From: an uncultured Candidatus Saccharibacteria bacterium
GTDB taxonomy: Bacteria; Patescibacteriota; Saccharimonadia; Saccharimonadales; JAGQNJ01
Length of the DNA: 64,000 nt
Assembly (NCBI GenBank): GCA_964577565.1
Contig: CAZNZL010000003.1
Location: forward strand, 241-64,240
Reading direction: 5' to 3'
A model generated the notes under the pieces. That model was not told the origin of the DNA, did no database searches, and was given only the letters and a program-made list of their open reading frames with translations. Both the position numbers and the translations under genes were made by a program. The stretch's first letter is position 1, and every line of letters begins with the position of its first letter. Below, piece by piece: positions 5,075 to 62,483 of this stretch.

Positions 5075-5981
5075 ATTTTTTACCGGCGCTAATAAGCACG
5101 AACTTACGCAAGCACTTCAGCAAGCGGTGGCGGGTTTTGTAAAACGCCACGGCGACTTGGCGGTAGAGCGTATTGACGCAGAAGAGGCTAATCCAGATCA
5201 AATAATAGAAGCTACGCAAAGTGTATCGTTTTTGGCGCCTGCCAAAATGATAGTTATTTCTAATGCCAACGGCAAAGATTTGCTTGAAAAACTGGTTGAA
5301 CTTGAAGTAGTTGATACAACCGAGGTAATTGCGGTTATACCAAAAGTAGATAAACGTGCCCAGTATTATAAAAAACTGCAAAAGCACCCAGACTTTACAT
5401 TGTTTGAAGAGGTTGCACCACAACAATTACCAAAATGGTTGCAAGCGCAAGTAGTTGCAGGCGGCGGCACTATTTCTCTGGCGGATGCGCGCTATCTTAT
5501 TGAGCGGGTGGGGACTAATCAGTTGCAACTTAGTAATGAAGTTCAAAAATTACTTTTATATAACGACACAATTACCAAAAGTTCGATCGATGCCTTAACG
5601 GAACCCTTACCACAAACCACGGTTTTTCAGCTTATAGAAGCGGCTTTTGGTGGCAACCTCAGGCGCGCAATAGAAATTTACCACGAACAACGCGCACAAA
5701 AAGTAGAACCACATGCGATTGTTGGCATGATCGCCTGGCAGCTACATATTTTGGCGGTTATCAAGGCAGCGGGTAATAGGCCGCAAGATGAGATCGCCAA
5801 ACAAGCCAAGCTAAACCCCTTCGTTGTAAAGAAAAGCTCAGCAATTGCTAAACGAATGTCGCTAACAACCATAAAACAACTTGTGAGCGATGCCATTGCA
5901 CTTGATAAAGCGCTAAAAACCACCTCGATCGATGCTGACGAAGCCGTCCAGACCTATTTATTGAAGTTGCCTATTTCTTAG
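5067..5981 (+). CDS. holA: DNA polymerase III delta subunit
   Basis: Size, position and a delta-like N-terminal pattern. ATGATTAA overlaps the mutM stop. The upstream TTG at 5010 is rejected. Confidence 0.7.
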   Translation: MIKFFTGANKHELTQALQQAVAGFVKRHGDLAVERIDAEEANPDQIIEATQSVSFLAPAKMIVISNANGKDLLEKLVELEVVDTTEVIAVIPKVDKRAQYYKKLQKHPDFTLFEEVAPQQLPKWLQAQVVAGGGTISLADARYLIERVGTNQLQLSNEVQKLLLYNDTITKSSIDALTEPLPQTTVFQLIEAAFGGNLRRAIEIYHEQRAQKVEPHAIVGMIAWQLHILAVIKAAGNRPQDEIAKQAKLNPFVVKKSSAIAKRMSLTTIKQLVSDAIALDKALKTTSIDADEAVQTYLLKLPIS

Positions 5982-6455: not shown

Positions 6456-6549
6456 GTTTCGCTCGCTTGCTAACGCAAGCTACGAGCGACCCACTTTTCT
6501 CAGTAGCAAGAAAAGATGGGGCAAAAGTGCCACTGGCGACTGTCAGTTC
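6456..6549 (-). repeat. structured intergenic repeat family 1, copy A
   Basis: About 95% identical over ~95 nt to the reverse complement of 21689-21783. Contains two strong hairpins. Confidence 0.85.
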
Positions 6550-6693
6550 TTGGCTTGTTCGTTGTTAAGAGCTACCATACTTGTCACTGTGTTGTAGGGT
6601 TATATCACGCCTACAACTTCGCAACTACGCTCTAATGGTAGCTTTAACACTCACTAGTCCAGGAACTGTCAGAGCCAGGAATAGAGGCGATCC

Positions 6694-7261: not shown

Positions 7262-7344
7262 CCATTGCCACGAGGGGTTTTGCCTTCTTTTGACCCAAGT
7301 GCAAAAGAAGGTCGCTGGTAGCTTGCGTTAGCAAGCGGGCGAAA
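7262..7344 (+). repeat. structured intergenic repeat family 1, diverged copy C
   Basis: Same architecture as 21689-21783. The first hairpin stem is rewritten with compensatory changes (CCTTCTTTTG/CAAAAGAAGG). Confidence 0.7.
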
Positions 7345-9155: not shown

Positions 9156-9182
9156 TGAGCTAGTGGTACACTGTCTTCATGG

Positions 9183-9225
9183 ACAGCGTGCTATTAATCG
9201 ACAAGCCAAAGGGCTGGACGAGTCA
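9183..9225 (+). repeat. 43-bp direct repeat, copy 1 (truB 5' coding sequence)
   Basis: Identical to 9332-9374. Confidence 0.95.
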
Positions 9226-9231
9226 CACAAC

Positions 9232-9302
9232 TGAGACAAACCTACGGTTTTTCTCGTCGCGCCGGCAAAATGGTGCGACATTTTGTCGGGCTGCTCTTTT
9301 CC
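9232..9302 (-). repeat. structured intergenic repeat family 2, copy 1
   Basis: TGAGAC...TTTTCTCGTCGCGCCGG, then a CAAAATG/CATTTTG hairpin, then TCGGGCTGCTCTTTTCC. Near-identical flanks occur at 22851-22917. Confidence 0.8.
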
Positions 9303-9324
9303 CTTTGAAATATAAGAGTCACAT

Positions 9325-10062
9325 ATGTTAAACAGCGTGCTATTAATCGACAAGCCAAAGGGCTGGACGAGTCATGACGTGGTTGCTAAAGTTCGTTCCC
9401 TTATTCGGCAGGGAAATGTAACGCAGTTGAAAAAACTCGGGATTTCGCATTTTGATGCAGTGCAAGGTGGCCAGGCACTACGAAAGATCCGTGTAGGGCA
9501 TGCGGGTACGCTGGACCCATTGGCTACCGGACTGCTCATTGTATTGGTTGGTAAAGCTACCAAGCGCCAAGATGAGTTTATGAAGCAAGATAAAGTTTAT
9601 GAAGTAACACTCCATTTAGGTCAAACAAGTACCACAGCAGATGCAGAAGGCGAAAAAACAGTAGTATCAACCAAAAAACCAAGCCAAGAAGAGGTAAAGA
9701 AGGCCCTGCAGTCATTTGTTGGCACGATTCAACAGGTGCCACCGGTTTTTTCAGCCATTAAAGTTGACGGTAAGCGTGCCTATAAATTGGCGCGAGCCGG
9801 CAAAGAAGTTGCACTAGAGCCTCGAACAGTCACCATTTATTCAGTTAATGACGTTAGCTATGGCTATCCGCATGTTCGGTTTACGACGAAAGTATCAAGC
9901 GGTACGTATATTCGATCATTGGCTGTCGATATAGGTGATAGGCTACAAACCGGAGCCTATATGTCAGATTTACACCGAACAGCTATCGGCAATTTTAACG
10001 TTTCTGAGGCGCAAAACATTGATGAACTGGATCCATCGGAGCGTAACTCTGTTGAGACGTGA
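9325..10062 (+). CDS. truB: tRNA pseudouridine(55) synthase
   Basis: LLIDKPKGWTSHDVV and GHAGTLDPLATGLL catalytic-Asp motif. Confidence 0.92.
   Translation: MLNSVLLIDKPKGWTSHDVVAKVRSLIRQGNVTQLKKLGISHFDAVQGGQALRKIRVGHAGTLDPLATGLLIVLVGKATKRQDEFMKQDKVYEVTLHLGQTSTTADAEGEKTVVSTKKPSQEEVKKALQSFVGTIQQVPPVFSAIKVDGKRAYKLARAGKEVALEPRTVTIYSVNDVSYGYPHVRFTTKVSSGTYIRSLAVDIGDRLQTGAYMSDLHRTAIGNFNVSEAQNIDELDPSERNSVET
9332..9374 (+). repeat. 43-bp direct repeat, copy 2 (inside functional truB)
   Basis: Identical to 9183-9225. Confidence 0.95.
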
Positions 10063-18993: not shown

Positions 18994-21138
18994 ATGGCAA
19001 AAAAGAGAAAACAAACAAGAAAAAAGAAGACAGAACCGGTAGAAAAATCACCGTTTTGGGCGATGGCTGGCGGTGTGATCATGTTGCTGTTGGCGGTCTT
19101 TTTGCTGCTGGGCGGCTTCGGGGCCGGCGGGCCGTTGCCACAAGGCATGTTTAATGCCGCTTACTGGGCATTGGGCTGGGGCGCGTACGCTACACCGCTC
19201 GCGCTCGCTTTTTTTGGAATCTTAAAGTTTACCGAAGAAGATCACGAGATACCGCTTGGCAAGCTGGTGAGCATGATTGCATTTCTCGTAATGTTGGCAA
19301 GCTGGCTACATGTTGCGTTTGCTACTGAAGATCTTGTAGGCGAATTTACGGGTGGCCGCGGCGGTGCAATCGGCGAACTCATCGGCGGTATTACCCTAAG
19401 CGCGTTATCAAAAATGCCAGCTAGCGTCATGTTTTTTGTTTTTACGCTTCTAGCGTTCTTTTTTGCATTTAACATATCGCTTGATATCTTTTTGAGGCTA
19501 GGCGACTTGTTTAAGCGCGAAGAAGGCGACGAAAGTGAGCTCGGCAAGCTTAAAACAAACGCCGGCTTTCAATTGAACGAAGGCGTACCGGTTGAGCATG
19601 CTAAGGGTAGGCCAGTCGGTATTAAAAACAGCGCTCAAAAGCTAACCGCAGAAGAAAATCACGAGGCGCTAACGGTAGCCAGTGACCCAACGTGGAAGTT
19701 GCCTGGCTTTGACTTGCTTAATCAAAAACAAGACAAAGCTGATGCCGGTGATGTTGAGGGTAATGCTCGCACCATTAAAGAGTCGCTCTCTAATTTTAAT
19801 ATTGATGTAGAGATGGAAGGCGCTAACATTGGCCCGCGCGTAACGCAGTATACCCTGAAGCCTTCTACCGGTGTAAAGCTCAATAAAATTACCGGCCATG
19901 CTGACAACTTGGCGTATGACCTTGCGGCACATTCAATTAGAATTGAGGCGCCAATTCCGGGTAAACGAGCGGTAGGTATAGAAGTACCGAATGTAAAATC
20001 AGCCACCGTTCGCATTAGCAGCATTATGCAATCGCCCGAGTGGAAGGGTATAAATAGCCCACTGGGTTTTGCGATTGGTAAAGACATCTCTGGTAAAGCT
20101 ATTACCGCCTCATTAGATAAAATGCCGCACCTGCTTGTGGCTGGTCAGACAGGTTCTGGTAAGTCGGTCATGATCAATACCATTTTAACAAGCTTGCTTT
20201 ACCGCAATAGCCCCAGTGATCTTAAGCTTATTTTGGTTGACCCCAAACAGGTTGAATTAAAGCCGTATGATGAAATTCCACATCTATTAACACCGGTTAT
20301 AACCGAGCCAGAGAAATGCATCAGCGCGCTTAAATGGACGGTCGCCGAGATGGAGCGTCGCTATAAAGCACTTGCAGAGCTGCGCGTGCGCAATGTTGTT
20401 GAATACAACAACAAGAAGAAAGAAGAAGGTATGCCGTATATTGTGGTTGTGATTGACGAGTTGGCAGATCTGATGATGATGGCCGCTCGTGACGTCGAGG
20501 CACTGATCGTACGCATTGCCCAAAAAGCGCGCGCCGTTGGTATTCACCTTATTTTGGCAACACAGCGCCCGAGCGTAGATGTTATTACTGGTCTGATAAA
20601 AGCTAACGTGCCGGCTCGTATTGCCTTTACGGTTGCCAGCCAAGTTGACTCTCGTACCATTATTGACCAAATCGGCGCCGAAAAGCTGCTGGGCCAGGGT
20701 GACATGTTGCTCTTAACGGCCGACATGCCAAAACCGGTTCGCGTCCAAGGTGCGTTAATCACTGATGAAGAAACCAATAGGGTTACTGACTTTATTCGTG
20801 ACCAACGCGAACCGCAATATGACGAAGAGGTTGTAAGCCAGCCGGTGCAACTAAACGGACGCGGTGGCGTTGTGGCTCAAATTGATGACACTGATGAGCC
20901 TATCTTTAAAGATGCCGTACGGGTAGTGATTGAAGGTCGCAAAGCCAGTACGAGCCTCTTGCAGCGGCGCTTGCGTATTGGTTACGCCAAGGCAGCACGC
21001 TTAATCGAAGCCATGGAAGAGCAAGGTATTATAGGACAAGCAGATGGATCACGGCCACGTGAAGTGCTGGTGAGTTCAATGGACGAAGTCTTTGGTGGTG
21101 GAGCTGACAACACCGTGGCCGAAGATGAGGCGCTGTAG
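18994..21138 (+). CDS. ftsK: DNA translocase FtsK/SpoIIIE
   Basis: N-terminal TM helices, motor Walker A (GQTGSGKSV), Walker B (VVVIDELADLM) and a gamma winged-helix (LLQRRLRIGYAKAARLIE). Confidence 0.93.
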   Translation: MAKKRKQTRKKKTEPVEKSPFWAMAGGVIMLLLAVFLLLGGFGAGGPLPQGMFNAAYWALGWGAYATPLALAFFGILKFTEEDHEIPLGKLVSMIAFLVMLASWLHVAFATEDLVGEFTGGRGGAIGELIGGITLSALSKMPASVMFFVFTLLAFFFAFNISLDIFLRLGDLFKREEGDESELGKLKTNAGFQLNEGVPVEHAKGRPVGIKNSAQKLTAEENHEALTVASDPTWKLPGFDLLNQKQDKADAGDVEGNARTIKESLSNFNIDVEMEGANIGPRVTQYTLKPSTGVKLNKITGHADNLAYDLAAHSIRIEAPIPGKRAVGIEVPNVKSATVRISSIMQSPEWKGINSPLGFAIGKDISGKAITASLDKMPHLLVAGQTGSGKSVMINTILTSLLYRNSPSDLKLILVDPKQVELKPYDEIPHLLTPVITEPEKCISALKWTVAEMERRYKALAELRVRNVVEYNNKKKEEGMPYIVVVIDELADLMMMAARDVEALIVRIAQKARAVGIHLILATQRPSVDVITGLIKANVPARIAFTVASQVDSRTIIDQIGAEKLLGQGDMLLLTADMPKPVRVQGALITDEETNRVTDFIRDQREPQYDEEVVSQPVQLNGRGGVVAQIDDTDEPIFKDAVRVVIEGRKASTSLLQRRLRIGYAKAARLIEAMEEQGIIGQADGSRPREVLVSSMDEVFGGGADNTVAEDEAL

Positions 21139-21209
21139 CTAGCAAATAAACTTGCTTCTGACTGTAAAATTGCTTACGATTAAATAAGAAACAAAAACTG
21201 GGTAAAAGA

Positions 21210-21248
21210 GGTCGGCTGGAGTCCTAATGGCTCTGACCGACCTTTTTT
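21210..21248 (+). terminator. intrinsic terminator after ftsK
   Basis: GGTCGG...CCGACC stem followed by TTTTTT. Confidence 0.7.
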
Positions 21249-21375
21249 GAACCTTATTTGCATCATCTGCTTCTGACAGTTCTTTCAAAAAGAACCAAAG
21301 CCTTTGTTCCTTTTTGTTTCGGCAAAAAAGAACCCAAAAAGCCGACTGGCGACTGAAAAACAATGATGTTCATTC

Positions 21376-21465
21376 ACGTGTCTGGTATCCGGATTCTACG
21401 TAACGACCCTTCGGGGTCGCCCGGCTACTGCCGGGTGAGCCTCGAATCACGGTATACCAGACTAC
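21376..21465. mobile_element. 90-nt MITE-like palindromic element flanked by an 8-bp direct repeat (GTTCATTC)
   Basis: Imperfect terminal inverted repeats: ACGTGTCTGGTATCCGGATTC versus the reverse complement of GAATCACGGTATACCAGACTACGT. Direct repeats at 21368-21375 and 21466-21473. Internal GACCC-ttcg-GGGTC and CCCGGC-tact-GCCGGG hairpins. Confidence 0.55.
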
Positions 21466-21688
21466 GTTCATTCTCTTCAGTTTTTCAGAGCCAGGTTTTC
21501 AGTATCAGGTGTGGCTTATTTCATACCTGGTTTAGATTACGCCAAACTTGACTTTGATTTTTTCTGGCTCTGGCAGTTCATGATGAGTGAATGTCAAATG
21601 AACAATTAAGCAAGCGACAAACTTGCCCCGTACGGGGATGCTTGTCACTGTTTGGAGCCATTGTTCTATTTGACAATGAAATTATAAA

Positions 21689-21783
21689 GAACTGGCAGTC
21701 GCCAGTGGCACTTTTGCCCCATCTTTTCTTGCTACTGAGAAAAGTGGGTCGCTGGACAGCTTGCGTTAGCAAGCGAGCGAAAC
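21689..21783 (+). repeat. structured intergenic repeat family 1, copy B
   Basis: Reverse complement of 6456-6549 at ~95% identity. Confidence 0.85.
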
Positions 21784-21832
21784 TGCAAAAACTTTGGTTA
21801 TACCTTTTGTCCATTTAAATAGGTGTTGGGGT

Positions 21833-21861
21833 TTGACAAACAGGGGTGATTTTAGTAAAAT
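21833..21861 (+). promoter_or_regulatory. rpsF operon promoter (TTGACA-17-TAAAAT)
   Basis: Consensus-like hexamers about 75 nt upstream of the GTG start. The leader contains a GC hairpin and a GGAAGGAG Shine-Dalgarno sequence. Confidence 0.7.
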
Positions 21862-21937
21862 TAACGCATTATTAACTTATTCAGCTCGTAGCCTCTAGGG
21901 CGTACGGGCCGAGACCAAAGGAAGGAGTTTAGACTTA

Positions 21938-22324
21938 GTGAATAAGTACGAACTAGCCGTACTGTATCACCCTGATCTTGAAGTAGATCTTGATAAGGGC
22001 GAACAGCGCGTTAAAAAAATCATTGAAGACAATAAGGGCAAGATTGTCGAGAGTGATAACTGGGGCAAAAAGAAGCTTGCGTACCCAATCAACAGATTAG
22101 AGTCAGCTGTATATGTGTTCTATGCAACAGAGTTAGAGCCAACCAGCCTCGCAAAAATTGAGTCAACCCTTAACATCACCGACGAAGTTATTCGTTATTT
22201 GATAGTTAAGATTGACCCTAAAGAAGAAGCAAAAGTCGCGGCAGCCAAAGAAGCCGCCGCCAAGAAGCAAGCAGCACGTGCCGAAGCCGCAAACGATGAT
22301 TCAAAAGAAGAACCCGAAGAATAA
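21938..22324 (+). CDS. rpsF: 30S ribosomal protein S6 (GTG start) with an acidic/Ala-rich tail
   Basis: YELAVLYHPDLE...WGKKKLAYPI signature. Confidence 0.92.
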   Translation: MNKYELAVLYHPDLEVDLDKGEQRVKKIIEDNKGKIVESDNWGKKKLAYPINRLESAVYVFYATELEPTSLAKIESTLNITDEVIRYLIVKIDPKEEAKVAAAKEAAAKKQAARAEAANDDSKEEPEE

Positions 22325-22359
22325 ATAAGGTACACTAGGGGCAGTAAGGAGATTTAGGG

Positions 22360-22830
22360 ATGGCAAAGGGATTTAACAAAGTAATTTTAATGGGTAACCT
22401 CACGCGTGACCCAGAAGTTCGCACGACCCCAAATGGTCAAAGTGTCGCTAACTTTTCATTAGCGGTAAATCGTACCTGGAAGGGTGCGGATGGCAACCAG
22501 CAAGAATCAGTCAGCTATATTGATTGTGTTGCATGGGGTCGCACCGGTGAAGTGATTGCGCAGTACATGCAAAAAGGTCGACCAATTTTAGTTTCTGGTC
22601 GTTTAGATCAGCGAAGCTGGGAACAAGATGGTCAAAAGCGCAGCAAGGTTGAAGTAGTGATTGAAGACTTTAACTTTGTTGGTGGCGGTGGTGGTGACTT
22701 TGGTGGTAATAACGGTGGCGGTGCATCGCGACAAAGCTCCGGCGGAAGTCAGAGTAAAAAGTCTGATGACGTGGTGATTGAAGATATTAAGGATGATGAA
22801 GAGATTAACCTCGACGACATCCCATTTTAA
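22360..22830 (+). CDS. ssb: single-stranded DNA-binding protein
   Basis: OB fold (NKVILMGNLTRDPEVRTTPNG), Gly-rich linker and an acidic DDIPF tip. Confidence 0.93.
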   Translation: MAKGFNKVILMGNLTRDPEVRTTPNGQSVANFSLAVNRTWKGADGNQQESVSYIDCVAWGRTGEVIAQYMQKGRPILVSGRLDQRSWEQDGQKRSKVEVVIEDFNFVGGGGGDFGGNNGGGASRQSSGGSQSKKSDDVVIEDIKDDEEINLDDIPF

Positions 22831-22850
22831 GCCACGCTTACGCTGGCTTA

Positions 22851-22917
22851 TGAGACAACCAAGGGTTTTCTCATCGCGCCGGCAAAATGGTTCACATTTT
22901 GTCGGGCTGCTCTTTCC
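22851..22917 (-). repeat. structured intergenic repeat family 2, copy 2
   Basis: Same flanks and CAAAATG/CATTTTG stem as 9232-9302, with a different loop. Confidence 0.8.
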
Positions 22918-23058
22918 TAACTGGGGTGGATCAACGGAGATTTAAAAATGAGTAATATATGTGAAAGTTCTAATATATGCATCCAAGCATAAATGCTTGA
23001 ACTGAAAAGCGGTGACTTTACAGCAATCAACTAAACTAAAGAAAGGAGAGGGGCTAAA

Positions 23059-23143
23059 GGAAAAAGAGCAGGGCCGGTCTGTCCATAGACAGATCACGAT
23101 TCATTCGTGAAGGCCCGATGAGAAAAAACGTAGTTTAGTCTCA
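23059..23143 (+). repeat. structured intergenic repeat family 2, copy 3 (inverted relative to copy 2)
   Basis: GGAAAAAGAGCAG, then a GGGCC...GGCCC branched hairpin, then CGATGAGAAAAAA...GTCTCA. Confidence 0.7.
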
Positions 23144-23159
23144 TTAGCCCCGCGTTATT

Positions 23160-23363
23160 ATGGCGAAGATATTTAGAAAACGAGACGAAGTAGCATTTTT
23201 TGACTATAAAGACTTTAAGACCTTACAACGTTACGTAAACGTATATGGTCAGATTGAGGGCCGCAAAAAAACCGGTCTAACTGAGAGTCAACAGCGTCAC
23301 TTGGCGCGTGCTATTAAGCGTGCACGACATCTAGCATTGTTACCATTCGTTGCTAACAATTAG
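23160..23363 (+). CDS. rpsR: 30S ribosomal protein S18
   Basis: FFDYKDFKTLQRYV...GLT..QQR.LA.AIKRAR.LALLPF. Confidence 0.92.
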   Translation: MAKIFRKRDEVAFFDYKDFKTLQRYVNVYGQIEGRKKTGLTESQQRHLARAIKRARHLALLPFVANN

Positions 23364-23374
23364 AGGATCCGTAG

Positions 23375-23941
23375 ATGGCGTTTGGAATTACTGATCTTAA
23401 AAAAGGCACGTTGTTTCAGTGGAATGGCGAGCCTTACAAAGTTATTGAATATGCTCAAAAAGTAATGGGCCGTGGTGGCTCAATTGTGAATGTTCGCATT
23501 AAGAGTTTGCTTGACGGTAAGGTTTTAGAAAAAACCTTTAAGGGCAATGAACAGCTAGAACCCGCAGAAGTAACAAACAAAAATGTGCAGTACTTGTATA
23601 ACGACGGTACAACCTTTTACTTCATGGAGGATGATACATACGAACAGTTTGAGATATCAGCAGACTTAATTGGTGACCAGCAAGGATATTTAAAAGAGGG
23701 TGATCGTGTAGTGGCGCAACTTTTTAACGGTAGGGTTATAAATGTAGAGTTGCCTAAAAATGTGTACCTCAAAGTTACTTATGCAGAAGATGTTGTGAAG
23801 GGTGACACAACCTCAAGCGTGCAAAAAGATGCCGAGCTAGAAACTGGCATTACCGTAAAAGTACCATCTTTTATTAAGACTGGCGATGTAATTAGCGTCG
23901 ATACAGCCACGGGGGCTTACCGTGAACGAAAAAAAGATTAG
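23375..23941 (+). CDS. efp: translation elongation factor P
   Basis: 188 aa with DLKKGTLFQWNGEPYKVIEY...GRGGSIV. Confidence 0.92.
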   Translation: MAFGITDLKKGTLFQWNGEPYKVIEYAQKVMGRGGSIVNVRIKSLLDGKVLEKTFKGNEQLEPAEVTNKNVQYLYNDGTTFYFMEDDTYEQFEISADLIGDQQGYLKEGDRVVAQLFNGRVINVELPKNVYLKVTYAEDVVKGDTTSSVQKDAELETGITVKVPSFIKTGDVISVDTATGAYRERKKD

Positions 23942-24448: not shown

Positions 24449-24475
24449 TTCTAACTTTCTTAAGAATGTTAGAAT
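24449..24475. promoter_or_regulatory. near-palindromic operator overlapping the extended -10 (TGtTAGAAT) of the ArsR-family gene
   Basis: TTCTAACtTTCTT|AAGAAtGTTAGAA has 13-bp arms with 1 mismatch. The ATG lies 6 nt after the -10 box. Confidence 0.6.
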
Positions 24476-24481
24476 GAAATT

Positions 24482-24748
24482 ATGAATAGTGTTCAGAAAG
24501 CAGAGGTAGTGAAGGGTTTTTCTAACCACTACCGAATAGAAATCTTAAGATTATTGCACAAGCATCCCCGCCTTTCCGTTGAGGAAATAGCTGATGAAAT
24601 TGGGGCAGAATACAAAACGATGGCCGCCCACATCCGCCGTATGTATACAAGTGGTTTGGTTTTAAAGAGATACCGCGGTCGAAGAGTAGAGCACATCTTA
24701 ACAAAGCGCGGTCTCAATGTTCTAACATTCTTAAGAAAGTTAGCATGA
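24482..24748 (+). CDS. ArsR/SmtB-family winged-helix transcriptional regulator
   Basis: 88 aa with HYRIEILRLL...LSVEEIADEIG...AHIRRMYTSGLV. Confidence 0.8.
   Translation: MNSVQKAEVVKGFSNHYRIEILRLLHKHPRLSVEEIADEIGAEYKTMAAHIRRMYTSGLVLKRYRGRRVEHILTKRGLNVLTFLRKLA
24722..24743. promoter_or_regulatory. second copy of the operator palindrome, at the arsR-like 3' end just upstream of tlyA
   Basis: CTAACATTCTT|AAGAAAGTTAG has 11-bp arms with 1 mismatch. Confidence 0.5.
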
Positions 24749-25461
24749 AACAGAGGCTGGATGTACGGCTTTTAAATAGAAAATTTGCAGAAAGCCGCTC
24801 TCAAGCGGAGAACTTTATTAAGCTTGGCGAAGTTACGGTAGACGGCAAATTAATCACCAAGCCGGGCTATTTTGTCAGTGATTCGTCAGAAATAAAAGTG
24901 ACCGCTAATGAGCGATATGTCTCACGTGCTGGCCTTAAGCTAGCGTCAGTAGCTCAAATATTTAAACTACATTTTAAAAATAAAACCGTTTTAGATGTAG
25001 GCTCGTCTACCGGCGGGTTTACAGATTATGCTCTCCAGCATGGTGCACAAAAAGTTATTGCAGTAGATGTTGGCACTAATCAGCTGCACCCGAAGTTGCG
25101 CGCAGATAAAAGAATCGAGCTGCATGAACAAACCGACATCAGAGACTTAAAAAAGTTGACTTCAGAACCCGATATTGTCGTGATTGACGTCTCGTTTATA
25201 TCGCTTAAAGAGGTTTTGCCTCACGTATCAACACTTCTATCTAAAGACGCACTTATTGCCGCTATGTTAAAGCCGCAATTTGAAGCCGGTGCTCAGCATA
25301 AACATAAGGGAGTTATAAAAAACGAAAAAATTCGGCGCGAGATTCTAAAAGACTTTGAACAGTGGGTGAAGGGTTACTTTGTTATTTTACAAAAAGCTGA
25401 CAGCGGTATTACGGGTACAAAAGGCAACCAAGAACGATTTTATTTATTAAAAAGATCGTAG
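24745..25461 (+). CDS. tlyA: TlyA-family rRNA 2'-O-methyltransferase
   Basis: S4 domain followed by an FtsJ fold (VLDVGSSTGGFTDYAL). Confidence 0.88.
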   Translation: MKQRLDVRLLNRKFAESRSQAENFIKLGEVTVDGKLITKPGYFVSDSSEIKVTANERYVSRAGLKLASVAQIFKLHFKNKTVLDVGSSTGGFTDYALQHGAQKVIAVDVGTNQLHPKLRADKRIELHEQTDIRDLKKLTSEPDIVVIDVSFISLKEVLPHVSTLLSKDALIAAMLKPQFEAGAQHKHKGVIKNEKIRREILKDFEQWVKGYFVILQKADSGITGTKGNQERFYLLKRS

Positions 25462-25462
25462 T

Positions 25463-25512
25463 GGAGAGCAGCCTGAGCAACGAATTTATTTCGTGCCCGG
25501 CGCGCCGAGAGG
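25463..25512 (+). repeat. structured intergenic repeat family 2, copy 4
   Basis: GGAGAGCAGCC, then a GCAACGAA-ttta-TTTCGTGC hairpin, then CCGGCGCGCCGAGAGG. Confidence 0.6.
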
Positions 25513-25589
25513 GTATATTCTCCTCTCAAGTGAGTGGCAATAAATAACGTTTTTACTTATTAAAACTGGTAAACTGATAAAATTAAGAT

Positions 25590-27939: not shown

Positions 27940-29040
27940 TTAAACGTTAAACCGAAACTCCACCACGTCGTCTGGTTGCATTATGTAGGTTTTGCCTTCG
28001 GTCCGGACTTTGCCGGCAGCCTTGGCGGCCGTTTCTGACCCAGCCGCGATAAGATCGTGGTAATTAACCACCTGGGCGGCAATAAAACCGCGCTCAAAGT
28101 CGGTGTGAATAACGCCAGCGGCTTGCGGAGCCGTAGCTCCTTTTTTGATGGTCCAAGCCCGCACTTCTTTTTGGCCTGCGGTCAGATAACTCTGTAGCCC
28201 TAACGTTTCATAAGCCGCATGGATTAATTGTTCCAAGCCAGATTGCTCTACGTTATAACTGGCAAGTAGTTCGCTTCGATCATCCTCATCAAGGGCCTGA
28301 AGCTCGTGCTCTAGTTTGGCACAAACAAAAATACTTTGCGCATGTGGCACTAGCGTAGCCAGGGCTGCTTTTTTGCTATTGTCTGCTAGGGTGTTTTCAT
28401 CCACATTAAACACGTAGATAACTGGCTTAGCTGTCAATAATTGCAATTCGTCAAGCAGAGCTTCTCCCTCCAAATTATTTCTAACATTCTTAAGAATGTT
28501 AGAATGAAACAGGGGTATATCATTAGAAAGTTCGACGTGAATGGCACTAAGGAGCTTGACTAGCGGAGCAAGCTTTGGGTTAGCGCGGGCTTCTTTGTCT
28601 AGGCGGGGTAGGCGCTTTTCAACGGTTTGCAGATCTGCCAGCACAAGTTCAGTGTTGATAATATCTATGTCTTTTTTAGGGTCATGTGCTTCATCTACGT
28701 GCTGCACGTTTGGGTCATCAAAAGCCCGCACCACATGTGCAATCGCATTAGTGCTGCGTATATTAGCCAAAAATTGATTACCTAAACCTTCGCCCTGTGA
28801 TGCTCCGGCGACCAAACCGGCAATGTCAACAAATGTCACCGTTGCGGGCACAACTTTTTGGCTGTTGTATAACTTGGCTAATTGATTAAGCCGCTCATCG
28901 GGGATCGGTACAATACCGGTATTCGGCTCAATGGTCGCAAACGGATAATTAGCCGCCAAAATATTATTATTGGTCAGGGCATTAAACAAGGTAGACTTAC
29001 CCACATTCGGTAATCCCACAATCCCAATTGATAAACTCAT
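27940..29040 (-). CDS. ychF: ribosome-binding ATPase YchF
   Basis: GIVGLPNVGKSTLFNALT G1 motif and a TGS-like C-terminus. Confidence 0.93.
   Translation of the reverse strand: MSLSIGIVGLPNVGKSTLFNALTNNNILAANYPFATIEPNTGIVPIPDERLNQLAKLYNSQKVVPATVTFVDIAGLVAGASQGEGLGNQFLANIRSTNAIAHVVRAFDDPNVQHVDEAHDPKKDIDIINTELVLADLQTVEKRLPRLDKEARANPKLAPLVKLLSAIHVELSNDIPLFHSNILKNVRNNLEGEALLDELQLLTAKPVIYVFNVDENTLADNSKKAALATLVPHAQSIFVCAKLEHELQALDEDDRSELLASYNVEQSGLEQLIHAAYETLGLQSYLTAGQKEVRAWTIKKGATAPQAAGVIHTDFERGFIAAQVVNYHDLIAAGSETAAKAAGKVRTEGKTYIMQPDDVVEFRFNV
28479..28509. repeat. perfect 26-bp palindrome plus 5 nt, a near-identical copy of the arsR-like promoter/operator, inside the ychF coding sequence
   Basis: TTCTAACATTCTTAAGAATGTTAGAA followed by TGAAA. 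30 of 31 nt match 24449-24479. Confidence 0.9.
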
Positions 29041-29819: not shown

Positions 29820-31367
29820 ATGTCTGCTAGTCCAGAAACATCACTTTCACAAGGAGTTGAAATTGAGCCAAGTGTGCCTGAAGCTCACTTCTTAAAAGAC
29901 ACTATTTTTCGAGCGCGACAGTTACTTGGTAGAGGATTATTAATCTTAAGCCTAATTTCTGGTGGAGCAATTGCCAGCGATTCTGACAACGAATACGTTG
30001 AAGCGGCCGATACCATTAATACCTATCCTGACGCTGATGCTAAAGACTGCTCAGCAACGTATGGAATTTATTCTTGGTGCAAGGGAAGTCCTTATTACTG
30101 GAGTTCCCCAAGAGGATATGCTTATCGTAACTGTACTGACTGGGCAGCATATAGAATACCCCAGCTTACTGGTAAAAGTGTACCGAAAGGTTGGAGTCAT
30201 GGAGGTAATTGGGACGATGCTGCAAGGAAGGCAGGCTTTAGTGTGGATACCACACCAGAGCCGGGTGATATTGCCGTATGGAATGGTACAGACAAGAACA
30301 TATACGGGCATGTTGAAGTAGTAGAGTCAGTAAATTCCAATGGATCTGTAAACACATCTAGCTACAATAGCCGTGGCAATGGCAATTATGAATACCGAAC
30401 AGGCAGAGTGGCCAATCATTATATTGACATGAATGGAGCTGGCAAAGGCGTAAATAGCCAACCGACCACAGCGCAACCACAATCGAAGCCAGAAGATTTT
30501 ATGATTTATCGAGCATCAGATCATGGCAAATGGTATGCCAAATCTGGCCCAAGCGGAAACACATATAATGTGAACGGCATACCTCACGGCGGCTGGCCCG
30601 GTGATGTGCCGCTAGCGGGTGATTTTAACGGTGATAACGTAGAAGACCTTGTTATTTATCGAAACGGTGTATGGTACGTAAAAGATAAAAACGGTAATTT
30701 TATTGGCCCCGGACCAAACGGATTAGCTCATGGAGGTTGGCCTGGCGACGTTCCGATGGTGGGTGACATTGATGGTAATGGCATTGATGATTTTGTGATC
30801 ATACGTACCGCAAATGGGACCACCCGCTGGATTACTAAATCCGGCCCAACGGGTACGTCTTATATTTCAGACATTGCGCATGGTGGCTGGCCGGGTGATG
30901 AGTATATGCTTGGTGATATTGATGGTAATAAGACTGATGACTTTGTTTTGTTAAGAAATACCGGTGGAACACTGAACTGGATAACAAAAGCTGCCCCCGG
31001 TGGGCATAACTATATTTCTCACGTATTCCATGGCGGCTGGCCAGAAGATATCCCCATGCTGGGTGATGTGAATGGTGATGACAAAAAAGACTTCGTTATT
31101 TATAGGAATGGTGAGTGGATCAGCAAGGCAGCACCAAGCGGTACTACTTACATATCACATATCTTTCATGGCGGCTGGCCCGGCGATAAACCCAAAATGG
31201 GAGATATTGATGGTAACGGCACAGATGACTTTGTGCTACTAAGACGCTCTGGTGGAACCCTAAACTGGATAACTAAGGCAGCGCCAGGTGGAAGCAATTA
31301 TATCTCACATGTATTTCATGGCGGCTGGGAGGGTGATGTACCTCTGGTCGGCGACTTTGGCTCGTAG
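29820..31367 (+). CDS. exported CHAP-domain peptidoglycan amidase/peptidase fused to six FG-GAP/VCBS-like repeats
   Basis: CHAP Cys (NCTDWAAYR) and His (GHVEVVESV). The unit HGGWPGD.P..GD.(D/N)G(D/N)..DDFV occurs six times. Confidence 0.8.
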   Translation: MSASPETSLSQGVEIEPSVPEAHFLKDTIFRARQLLGRGLLILSLISGGAIASDSDNEYVEAADTINTYPDADAKDCSATYGIYSWCKGSPYYWSSPRGYAYRNCTDWAAYRIPQLTGKSVPKGWSHGGNWDDAARKAGFSVDTTPEPGDIAVWNGTDKNIYGHVEVVESVNSNGSVNTSSYNSRGNGNYEYRTGRVANHYIDMNGAGKGVNSQPTTAQPQSKPEDFMIYRASDHGKWYAKSGPSGNTYNVNGIPHGGWPGDVPLAGDFNGDNVEDLVIYRNGVWYVKDKNGNFIGPGPNGLAHGGWPGDVPMVGDIDGNGIDDFVIIRTANGTTRWITKSGPTGTSYISDIAHGGWPGDEYMLGDIDGNKTDDFVLLRNTGGTLNWITKAAPGGHNYISHVFHGGWPEDIPMLGDVNGDDKKDFVIYRNGEWISKAAPSGTTYISHIFHGGWPGDKPKMGDIDGNGTDDFVLLRRSGGTLNWITKAAPGGSNYISHVFHGGWEGDVPLVGDFGS

Positions 31368-61340: not shown

Positions 61341-61483
61341 AAGCACTATAATTTATTCAAATGCACATACCAAAAAACTATTTTCATGATCGCATAATTT
61401 TGTTGCTCTTGAGTTCTGGGGTGTTTTTAACCGTACTAAACGCTTTATTAATCCTATTGCGTCTTGATAACAGCCGCGGCAGC
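61341..61483 (+). repeat. 143-bp perfect direct repeat, copy 1
   Basis: Identical to 62341-62483. Contains TATAAT plus the first 41 codons of the membrane-protein gene. Confidence 0.97.
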
Positions 61484-62340: not shown

Positions 62341-62483
62341 AAGCACTATAATTTATTCAAATGCACATACCAAAAAACTATTTTCATGATCGCATAATTT
62401 TGTTGCTCTTGAGTTCTGGGGTGTTTTTAACCGTACTAAACGCTTTATTAATCCTATTGCGTCTTGATAACAGCCGCGGCAGC
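62341..62483 (+). repeat. 143-bp perfect direct repeat, copy 2
   Basis: Identical to 61341-61483, offset by exactly 1000 bp. Confidence 0.97.

Follow-up and report, generated by a model that had tools for sequence, protein, structure and literature searches.

A family of folded repeats in Saccharibacteria and the probable insertion of two inverted copies between ssb and rpsR

In the 64,000-nucleotide stretch of an uncultured Candidatus Saccharibacteria genome analysed here (the window), the open reading frames of rpsF (21938–22324), ssb (22360–22830, forward strand, supported also by tblastn against relatives), rpsR (23160–23363, forward strand) and efp (23375–23941) are accompanied by an unusual feature, a spacer of 329 nt at 22831–23159 that separates the ssb and rpsR coding sequences. 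The insertion lies directly 3′ of the ssb stop codon, TAA at 22828–22830. What this spacer is made of, and how it came to lie within the operon, are the questions raised by the locus. The initial annotation had described a normally tight operon junction split by an inverted pair of repeat elements, and comparison with relatives bears out the first part of this description. Among 69 relatives in which ssb is found directly upstream of rpsR, the spacer is no longer than 48 nt in 42 and spans 74–547 nt in the other 27. The canonical junction, TTTTAAGGAGAnnnnnATG, is 8–25 nt long, and its Shine–Dalgarno (SD) sequence is overlapped by the ssb stop codon.

A covariance model was built from 103 related copies of the repeat and run over the whole 64-kb window with filters off. 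It recovered exactly four copies, the same four that had been listed by inspection: copy A at 9229–9306 (reverse strand, 75 bits, E = 3.6e-18), copy B at 22848–22922 (reverse strand, 65 bits, E = 1.5e-15), copy C at 23056–23146 (forward strand, 46 bits, E = 1.6e-10) and copy D at 25459–25531 (forward strand, 34 bits, E = 2.3e-07). The fifth-ranked match had an E-value of 0.1. Copy D, which is divergent, starts on the stop codon of the gene at 24745–25461. Copies B and C, on opposite strands, are the inverted pair that had been proposed for the 329-nt spacer. Analysis of the whole window with Rfam 15 at gathering thresholds returned only four tRNAs, and the spacer was without a match when the region 21100–23400 was searched at E-values of up to 10; the repeat matches none of the covariance models of the Rfam families, including hammerhead, twister, pistol, hatchet and the rpsF/S6:S18 leader.

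A strict pattern, AAGAGCA-N20-50-GAYGAGAAAA-N6-12-GTCTCA, was searched in a collection of species-representative genomes and occurs at a minimum of 118 loci, compared with some 7 expected by chance on our own estimate; among the matches listed, nearly all are in Saccharibacteria / Saccharimonadia MAGs. Viral contigs contained no match to this pattern, our literature search found no paper describing the repeat, and exact-protein look-ups gave no recorded match for the SSB and TruB proteins of the window. The copies are single, with no tandem (VNTR) arrangement. This folded repeat of ~75 nt is a previously undescribed family of the Saccharibacteria.

The unit extends over ~75–95 nt. In the reading direction that we term the P sense, in which the tail comes first and H2 last, it consists of a purine tail S1 (AGGGAAAAGAGCA), a variable hairpin H1, a G, the hairpin H2 and, in many copies, a mini-hairpin H3. 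The first pair of H1 is G-C, and the hairpin is either simple or bifurcated. H2 is near-invariant, with the sequence AUGAGA.AAACC-loop-GGUUU.UCUCAU; it ends in GUCUCAU, harbours a conserved A.G mismatch and is followed in many copies by UAA and the mini-hairpin GGCGAAGCC or GCCGGAGGC. Across the 103 sequences, 92.7% of cells in H1 and H2 are paired, compared with 36–48% when the partners are slid by 1–3 columns. Double-sided changes are found at 15 pairs and are abundant in H1; pair 19–50, for instance, is CG in 66 sequences, GC in 19 and AU in 15, and pair 22–47 is GC in 66, CG in 23 and AU in 4. The stems that had been seen to differ between copies around conserved flanks correspond to this variable and covarying H1. 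Some 35 positions are invariant class-wide, many of them formally unpaired. H1 hairpins that are at least 85% identical make up 15% of within-genome pairs versus 2.4% of between-genome pairs, and this near-identity within genomes suggests recent copying there. In 83 of 120 cases, the complement gives the better H1 fold, a preference that is caused by one conserved A.C mismatch position; at the remaining positions, the G.U and A.C counts (14 versus 15) single out neither strand as the transcribed one.

Three simple functions for the conserved part of the unit were considered and rejected. It contains no sigma-70 hexamers that could constitute an internal promoter, promoters being located upstream. 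It does not encode a conserved peptide, as the full length of the unit is not divisible by 3 and only the operon copies show a frame constraint. Its complement, UGCUCUUUUCC, resembles boxA, which in Escherichia coli is UGCUCUUUAACAA, but an antitermination site of this kind would be on the wrong strand in 79 of 101 copies.

The purine-rich, mirror-like flanks that had attracted attention to these copies are real. Outward from the H1 junction, S1 reads ACGAGAAAAGG, and the 5′ arm of H2 reads AUGAGAAAAAC; the two are mirror images. The lengths of the A-runs in S1 and in the H2 5′ arm shift jointly, the combinations being 2/3, 3/4 (copy B), 4/5 (consensus) and 5/6 (copy C). In copy D and in L167, one of the loci from relatives, the A-runs are replaced by G-runs in both the tail and the H2 5′ arm, and the H2 3′ arm is changed complementarily (in copy D, these segments are GGAGAG, GAGAGG and CCUCUC, respectively). 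The mirror pattern also holds at position 10 in L051 and L099. Mirrored identity at variable positions is 92 versus 81.4 ± 2.7 in permuted combinations (p ~3e-4; 26 distinct S1/H2 combinations), the exceptions to the rule being L012, L053, L049 and L101. The sequences thus display a mirroring third strand and matching changes in all three strands, and a mirror repeat beside a duplex is what an intramolecular triple helix requires. Because S1 mirrors and covaries with the H2 5′ arm, a triple helix, or a tertiary contact equivalent to it, could form in the folded single strand. If formed, the triplex would be of the purine motif in the P sense and of the pyrimidine motif, with U.A-U and C+.G-C triples, on the complement. 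Whether RNA can physically adopt a purine-motif triplex is a matter of dispute (PMC7583470).

With the unit defined, the spacer between ssb and rpsR can be read from end to end. The ssb stop codon and copy B are linked by a small imperfect hairpin, AGCCACGCTTACGCTGGCT, recognised from the sequence at 22831–22849 on the reverse strand, which occupies the place taken by H3 in many copies. Copy B, defined by the covariance model and by its fold, is antisense to ssb and rpsR, with H2 at 22850–22874, H1 at 22876–22907 and the complement of the purine tail at 22908–22918. An AT-rich middle segment of 124 nt follows (22919–23042, forward strand) and leads to the rpsR SD sequence, AAGGAGA at 23043–23049 on the forward strand, which is assigned from its sequence, from the same GAAAGGAGAGGGGCU in L024 and from the canonical junctions of relatives. 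Immediately 3′ of it is the first strand of an outer helix, P0 (GGGGCUAA, 23050–23057, forward strand). Copy C, defined in the same way as copy B, is in the sense of rpsR and comprises the purine tail S1 at 23058–23070, a bifurcated H1 at 23071–23116 and H2 at 23118–23144. The 3′ strand of P0 (UUAGCCCC, 23144–23151, forward strand) is followed by 8 nt, in which there is no SD sequence, and then by the rpsR AUG at 23160. Copies B and C are 141 nt apart, opposite in orientation and unrelated in their H1 hairpins.

The middle segment has no detectable relative in the fetched loci. It contains a 14-codon ORF at 22948–22992 (MSNICESSNICIQA), with GGAGA at 22936–22940 ahead of it. The small ORFs present in the spacers of L003 and L167 show no similarity to this segment. 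The idea that it derives from a duplicated and since decayed rpsR start was rejected, as the similarity to the rpsR 5′ end is not significant (p = 0.15).

The long-range helix that had been proposed ahead of rpsR is recovered as P0 in the minimum-free-energy fold of copy C, which has an energy of −42.5 kcal/mol and a z-score of −6.6, with none of 200 shuffles equally stable. L024, from another species, has the equivalent helix, GGGGC/GCCCC, in its homologous copy close to rpsR. An outer helix closing every copy was considered and rejected, as the energies are −9.43 kcal/mol for real flanks and −9.39 kcal/mol for mismatched flanks (p = 0.40); such a helix is limited to a subset comprising copy C, L024, L085, L088, L025 and L090. 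A hairpin upstream, directed against the tail, shows weak enrichment (−6.1 versus −5.1 kcal/mol, p = 1.4e-4), again among some of the copies only. The position of P0 bears on the translation of rpsR. In the linear sequence, the SD sequence is 110 nt from the rpsR AUG; on the folded strand, it abuts P0 on the 5′ side, and P0 ends 8 nt from the AUG. Looping by P0 would therefore return the SD sequence to 8 nt from the AUG, and may in this way affect translation. The same SD–P0–AUG design is found in L024, with 7 nt to the AUG, and analogous SD–helix–AUG arrangements occur at dnaK (L085) and groEL (L088).

We next consider whether copies B and C belong to one element or to two. The repeat is present at the ssb–rpsR junction in six loci only, those of the window, L003, L024, L124, L134 and L167, and among 80 rpsR loci of relatives a nearby match was found in only 4. 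A lone B-like copy lies 4 nt past the ssb stop codon in L003, where it is accompanied by an 85-codon ORF, and in L134; in L167 the lone B-like copy is 12 nt past the stop codon and is accompanied by an ORF of ~100 codons. L124 has a B-like copy 3 nt past the ssb stop codon together with a second copy, in the P sense, that is situated upstream of ssb and not before rpsR. Conversely, L024 has a lone C-like copy ahead of rpsR, and only here and in the window does a P-sense copy precede rpsR. L004 encodes an S18 protein identical to that of the window, yet has no copy. As most relatives lack the repeat at this junction, we conclude that it is not a conserved rpsR leader; a known leader is likewise excluded by the spacer comparison and the lack of an Rfam match. 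The junction is instead an insertion hot spot.

The same comparison decides the fate of the ~290-bp element with TGAGAC/GTCTCA termini that the initial annotation had seen in the pair. The copies are indeed inverted, and the sequences TGAGAC and GTCTCA do exist at their outer ends. As termini, however, they do not stand, for each is the 3′ arm of its own copy's H2, an internal hairpin arm, and GTCTCA(T) marks exactly where each single ~75-nt unit ends on its H2 side. The B-like and C-like copies are independent of one another in relatives, which rules out a single 290-bp composite. Moreover, their H1 hairpins are unrelated, the 124 nt between them have no relative in the fetched loci and the pair is not flanked by a direct repeat. 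A composite element or MITE with inverted termini is accordingly an explanation to which we give almost no credence.

The flanks of the copies carry what looks like an insertion signature. Perfect direct repeats of 12–50 bp flank 14 of 118 copies; the longest are those of L046 (50 bp), L053 (48 bp), L054 (44 bp), copy A of the window (43 bp), L031 (29 bp), L111 (26 bp), L065 (24 bp) and L036 (23 bp), and six more are 12–16 bp in length. Random positions in the same loci reach 12 bp in 3 of 1428 cases, with a maximum of 16 bp, and flanks taken from different copies mostly share 10 bp or fewer, with 3 of 586 pairs at 12–17 bp. On the H2/H3 side, the direct repeat begins 3–19 nt past GUCUCAU. On the S1 side, it is separated from the unit by 3–27 nt of variable, non-conserved AT-rich filler. 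The H2/H3-side end of the unit is precise and the S1-side end is ragged. The duplicated segments are the ends or starts of genes, namely, a helicase C-terminus (L046 and L053), the start of tpiA (L031), the start of truB (copy A) and an SD-stop-start module (L065). Copy A sits inside the truB coding region, between perfect 43-bp repeats at 9183–9225 and 9332–9374 that are duplicates of the 5′ end of truB. The units lying between direct repeats do not end in inverted repeats, and this, together with the ill-defined boundary on the S1 side, makes classical cut-and-paste transposition a misfit. Beyond the perfect 48 bp of L053, only synonymous changes distinguish the duplicated gene ends, and the filler encodes the same C-terminal residues, which suggests that diverged alleles have recombined, for example after DNA uptake, rather than that simple transposition has taken place.

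Insertion within operons is accompanied by a distinctive arrangement of reading frames. Of 17 copies located between cistrons, 15 ahead of ribosomal-protein genes and the others at rnc and atpG, 16 lie within bridging ORFs of 33–40 codons. The bridging ORF has its own SD sequence and starts at an ATG overlapping the upstream stop codon (TAATG type); it crosses the element always in the same frame (AGG GAA AAG AGC AGC) and stops on the downstream start codon or within 5 nt of it. In 14 of 15 copies with such an ORF, the length of H1 leaves a remainder of 2 on division by 3; upstream of tRNAs, the remainders 0, 1 and 2 are represented by 15, 8 and 15 copies. The region of copy A (9179–9374) follows the same logic with the element in the opposite orientation. 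A 50-codon ORF at 9179–9331 on the forward strand opens at the old truB ATG and passes through the element, and its stop codon, TAA, overlaps the new truB start (ATGTTAA, 9325).

The placement of the repeat across the Saccharibacteria is far from uniform. Of 101 copies that could be classified, 79 have their P sense in the direction of the downstream gene and the other 22 are antisense; by the strands of the upstream and downstream genes, 55 copies are (+,+), 24 (−,+), 14 (−,−) and 8 (+,−). Thirty-eight copies sit 4–16 nt upstream of a tRNA gene, that of L067 is 12–14 nt ahead of 16S and that of L050 is in the rRNA spacer from tRNA-Ile to tRNA-Ala. In the divergent tRNA cases, a sigma-70-type −10 box ends 24–31 nt upstream of the tail. 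Ribosomal proteins account for 20 of the ~38 downstream ORFs and include S7, L4, L2, L22, S3, L16, S17, L14, S14, L13, S9, L10 and S18; further downstream ORFs encode SSB, EF-Tu, EF-Ts, DnaK, GroEL, IleRS, AlaRS and AtpG. Pfam confirmed ten of these assignments. Copies are also found within the 23S gene (L073 and L062, with L082 representing the same copy and flanks).

This distribution invites the main rival explanation, that the repeat is a conserved RNA module working in cis, as a leader or spacer that acts on RNA processing or stability in highly expressed genes (those for tRNA, rRNA, ribosomal proteins, EF-Tu and chaperones), its mobility being secondary or ancient. A fold with the tail in the groove might, for example, block 5′-to-3′ exonucleases in the P sense and 3′-to-5′ exonucleases in the opposite sense. 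The prevailing orientation, the fixed spacing from the promoter, the positions before tRNA, 16S and ribosomal-protein genes, the strong covariation and the invariant positions all speak for such a module. It is nevertheless rather unlikely to account for the repeat, as most relatives manage without the element at the orthologous ssb–rpsR junction, none of the window's four tRNAs has a copy in the covariance model search, and the 22 antisense copies, together with those within the 23S gene and coding regions and their long flanking duplications, are hard to reconcile with a leader. Nor do the G.U and A.C counts identify a transcribed strand, and in ribosomal-protein operons the ribosomes translating the bridging ORF would unfold the element. 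The last point, and the occurrence of both orientations, applies equally to a self-cleaving ribozyme or a dedicated endoribonuclease site that would separate the RNAs of polycistronic precursors. Copies do lie at sites of RNA processing, between tRNAs, before 16S, between cistrons and, in the manner of an intervening sequence, in 23S; many invariant nucleotides are formally unpaired, and the three-way-junction topology of copy C resembles that of the type I hammerhead. The core nucleotides, however, are unlike those of the hammerhead, the Rfam ribozymes are unmatched even at E-values of up to 10, and the outer helix is not general, so that we regard this explanation as very unlikely.

Transcription termination must also be weighed, since in the sense of ssb copy B is a hairpin followed by GCUGCUCUUUCC and looks like a terminator. 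A consensus terminator scan flags 22879–22905, with the tail GCTGCTCTTT; by such a simple scan, both A and B are flagged in the anti-P sense, and anti-P copies are positioned 3–20 nt past the ssb stop codon in five lineages. The copies might then be terminators in the anti-P sense, and the inverted pair a bidirectional stop between ssb and rpsR. The tail is U-poor, however (CUGCUCUUUUCC), and in 79 of 101 copies the orientation is the opposite one, in which the hairpin is followed by purines and not by a U-tract. Equivalent copies are found inside operons in L124 and L134, where they leave only ~25 nt before rpsR for the SD sequence, and a full terminator there would silence rpsR. For this reason, a complete transcription stop at copy B is unlikely, and termination as a general explanation of the repeat is quite improbable.

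Overall, we consider it probable that the unit is a mobile or duplicative structured repeat, specific to and common among the Saccharibacteria, and that two independent copies, inverted with respect to one another, have been inserted into a junction that normally measures 8–25 nt. The ~35 nt conserved class-wide weigh against a mobile repeat, since this exceeds the conservation of most selfish repeats; a domesticated leader or processing function of the sense copies, the main rival, is compatible with mobility. On the mobile-repeat reading, the folded single strand would be the recognition target of a putative mobilising activity. The element would land at gene boundaries, mostly in the sense orientation and beside highly transcribed genes, and its insertion would duplicate 12–50 bp of the target. 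The ssb–rpsR spacer would be the product of such insertions, with copy C looped out by P0 and the rpsR SD sequence restored to 8 nt from the AUG, and copy B may cause attenuation or termination of the rpsF-ssb transcript. Where the element lies in a ribosomal-protein operon, translational coupling would be kept by the bridging ORF that runs through it. A more specific proposal is that of a non-autonomous mobile element with a single-stranded RNA or DNA intermediate, recognition through a natural intramolecular triple helix of the purine.purine-pyrimidine type, one precise end joined to the target and duplications of 12–50 bp. We advance this proposal as a speculation, distinctly unlikely to be correct in all its parts; in its RNA version, copying would be SINE-like and target-primed, and transcripts would start ~17–27 nt upstream of the tail.

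The Saccharibacteria have genomes of ~1 Mb and very tight operons, yet they carry a class-wide structured repeat in their most highly expressed loci. The repeat accounts for puzzling long spacers, for gene ends present in duplicate and for 'extra' small ORFs in the annotation of these genomes, and the covariance model provides a tool for marking such sites. It raises the questions of what mobilises the element, whether the mirror repeat folds as a natural triple helix and how operon expression is maintained, whether by bridging ORFs or by an SD-to-AUG helix.

Comparison with known systems reveals partial likenesses. The REP, BIME and REPIN sequences, which are mobilised by RAYT (Y1) transposases, are likewise short, structured, multi-copy and intergenic; they are found either way round, at times paired in inverted order, operons tolerate their presence, and they can influence the ends of mRNAs. 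A REP, however, is one short imperfect palindrome of 20–40 nt with a GTAG-type head, whereas the unit described here has two hairpins and an invariant mirror-repeat purine tail; REPs are species- or genus-specific and cause no target duplication, whereas this repeat is class-wide and associated with duplications of 12–50 bp. A REPIN consists of two identical REPs inverted about a short spacer, and the pair in the window has different H1 hairpins and a gap of 141 nt. The repeat also departs from MITEs of the DDE type, in that it has no inverted ends, carries 3–27 nt of filler and is flanked by duplications that vary from 12 to 50 bp instead of being short and fixed. Insertion of IS1634 and IS1549 yields long direct repeats of variable length, 8–514 bp, for which there is no mechanistic model (PMC2266710). 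The resemblance to these elements is one of outcome only, as they are autonomous DDE elements of 1.5–2 kb with terminal inverted repeats, and the repeat is non-coding, ~75 nt long, without inverted termini and ragged at one end. Rickettsia palindromic elements and MITEs of the Correia and ERIC type are also small, palindromic mobile repeats that are tolerated in genes and transcripts and alter the expression of their neighbours, but their termini are inverted repeats, their duplications are short (TA) or absent, they have no mirror-repeat tail and they do not favour the 5′ edges of genes for tRNA, rRNA and ribosomal proteins.

Two further parallels concern the way in which the host accommodates the element. 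The small ORFs of MIRU (mycobacterial interspersed repetitive units), intercistronic elements of operons reportedly described by Supply et al. in 1997, overlap the upstream stop and downstream start codons and so preserve translational coupling. An intercistronic ORF that runs through the element and overlaps stop and start is likewise found here, in 16 of 17 intercistronic copies and at copy A of the window; MIRU, though, are tandem repeats of 46–101 bp with no conserved fold, and the Saccharibacteria repeat is single, strongly structured and found also beside tRNA and rRNA genes. In genes 38 and 25 of phage T4, a stable structure between the SD sequence and the AUG loops out and restores functional spacing. 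Copy C and P0 could serve rpsR in the same way, with 8 nt from helix to AUG; here, in contrast to T4, the looped-out segment is an inserted repeat of 95 nt, and the arrangement recurs at dnaK and groEL of other species.

The AT-rich middle part of the spacer between ssb and rpsR in the window contains a 14-codon open reading frame (ORF), MSNICESSNICIQA, at window positions 22948-22992, which is preceded at a distance of 7 nt by the sequence GGAGA. No relatives of this ORF were detectable among the fetched loci, and its similarity to the start of rpsR was tested and is not significant.

In some relatives, the ssb-rpsR junction contains an extra small ORF of 85-100 codons, situated 3' of the inverted copy of family 2, the structured interspersed repeat of Saccharibacteria. 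Such ORFs lie between ssb and rpsR at positions 210-467 of locus L003 and 1169-1471 of locus L167, and there is no obvious kinship between the two. The spacer of a further relative, L024, carries a GC-rich and apparently structured segment of ~120 nt (440-560) that is unrelated to family 2. In L004 (region 1-313), the SSB frame is not closed behind DDIPF, where its stop codon usually stands, but reads on for ~22 codons, and the space ahead of rpsR is occupied by a 92-codon ORF in a frame other than that of SSB. This arrangement could stem from a local rearrangement or from an assembly problem.

The window harbours a second repeat family besides family 2, at 6456-6568, 7303-7344 and 21670-21783. 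Its arms at 6485-6568 and 21670-21753 are 89% complementary over 84 nt, and perfect arms of 26 nt, GTTTCGCTCGCTTGCTAACGCAAGCT, are also present. One copy is housed in the unusually long ftsK-rpsF intergenic region (21139-21937, ~800 nt), within which there is also a strong promoter-like site at 21833-21861.

Three copies of a palindromic motif, TTCTAACATTCTTAAGAATGTTAGAA, are present, at 24449-24485, 24720-24756 and 28479-28515. Two of these copies flank a small gene of the HTH family (24482-24748, with HTH Pfam matches), and they are therefore probably operator sites for its product. A perfect direct repeat of 143 nt is found at 61341-61483 and 62341-62483; because the starts of its copies are separated by a round number, exactly 1000 nt, it looks more like an artefact of assembly or windowing than a biological feature. 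The tandem coding repeats of ~150 nt each at 30585-31342, with an HGGWPGD... motif, lie inside a large ORF that encodes a repeat-domain protein and has no connection to the family-2 finding.

Family-2 copies are also located inside 23S rRNA genes, at 5846-5924 of locus L073, ~780 nt from the 5' end of the gene, and at 3895-3973 of L062, as Rfam confirms for both. The same copy with the same flanks is present at 6127-6205 of L082, the Rfam check having covered the other two loci. In these copies, the GGG of the purine tail S1 is able to pair with a CCC directly past the near-invariant hairpin H2. Possible identities of the family-2 element here are an intervening sequence and an expansion segment.
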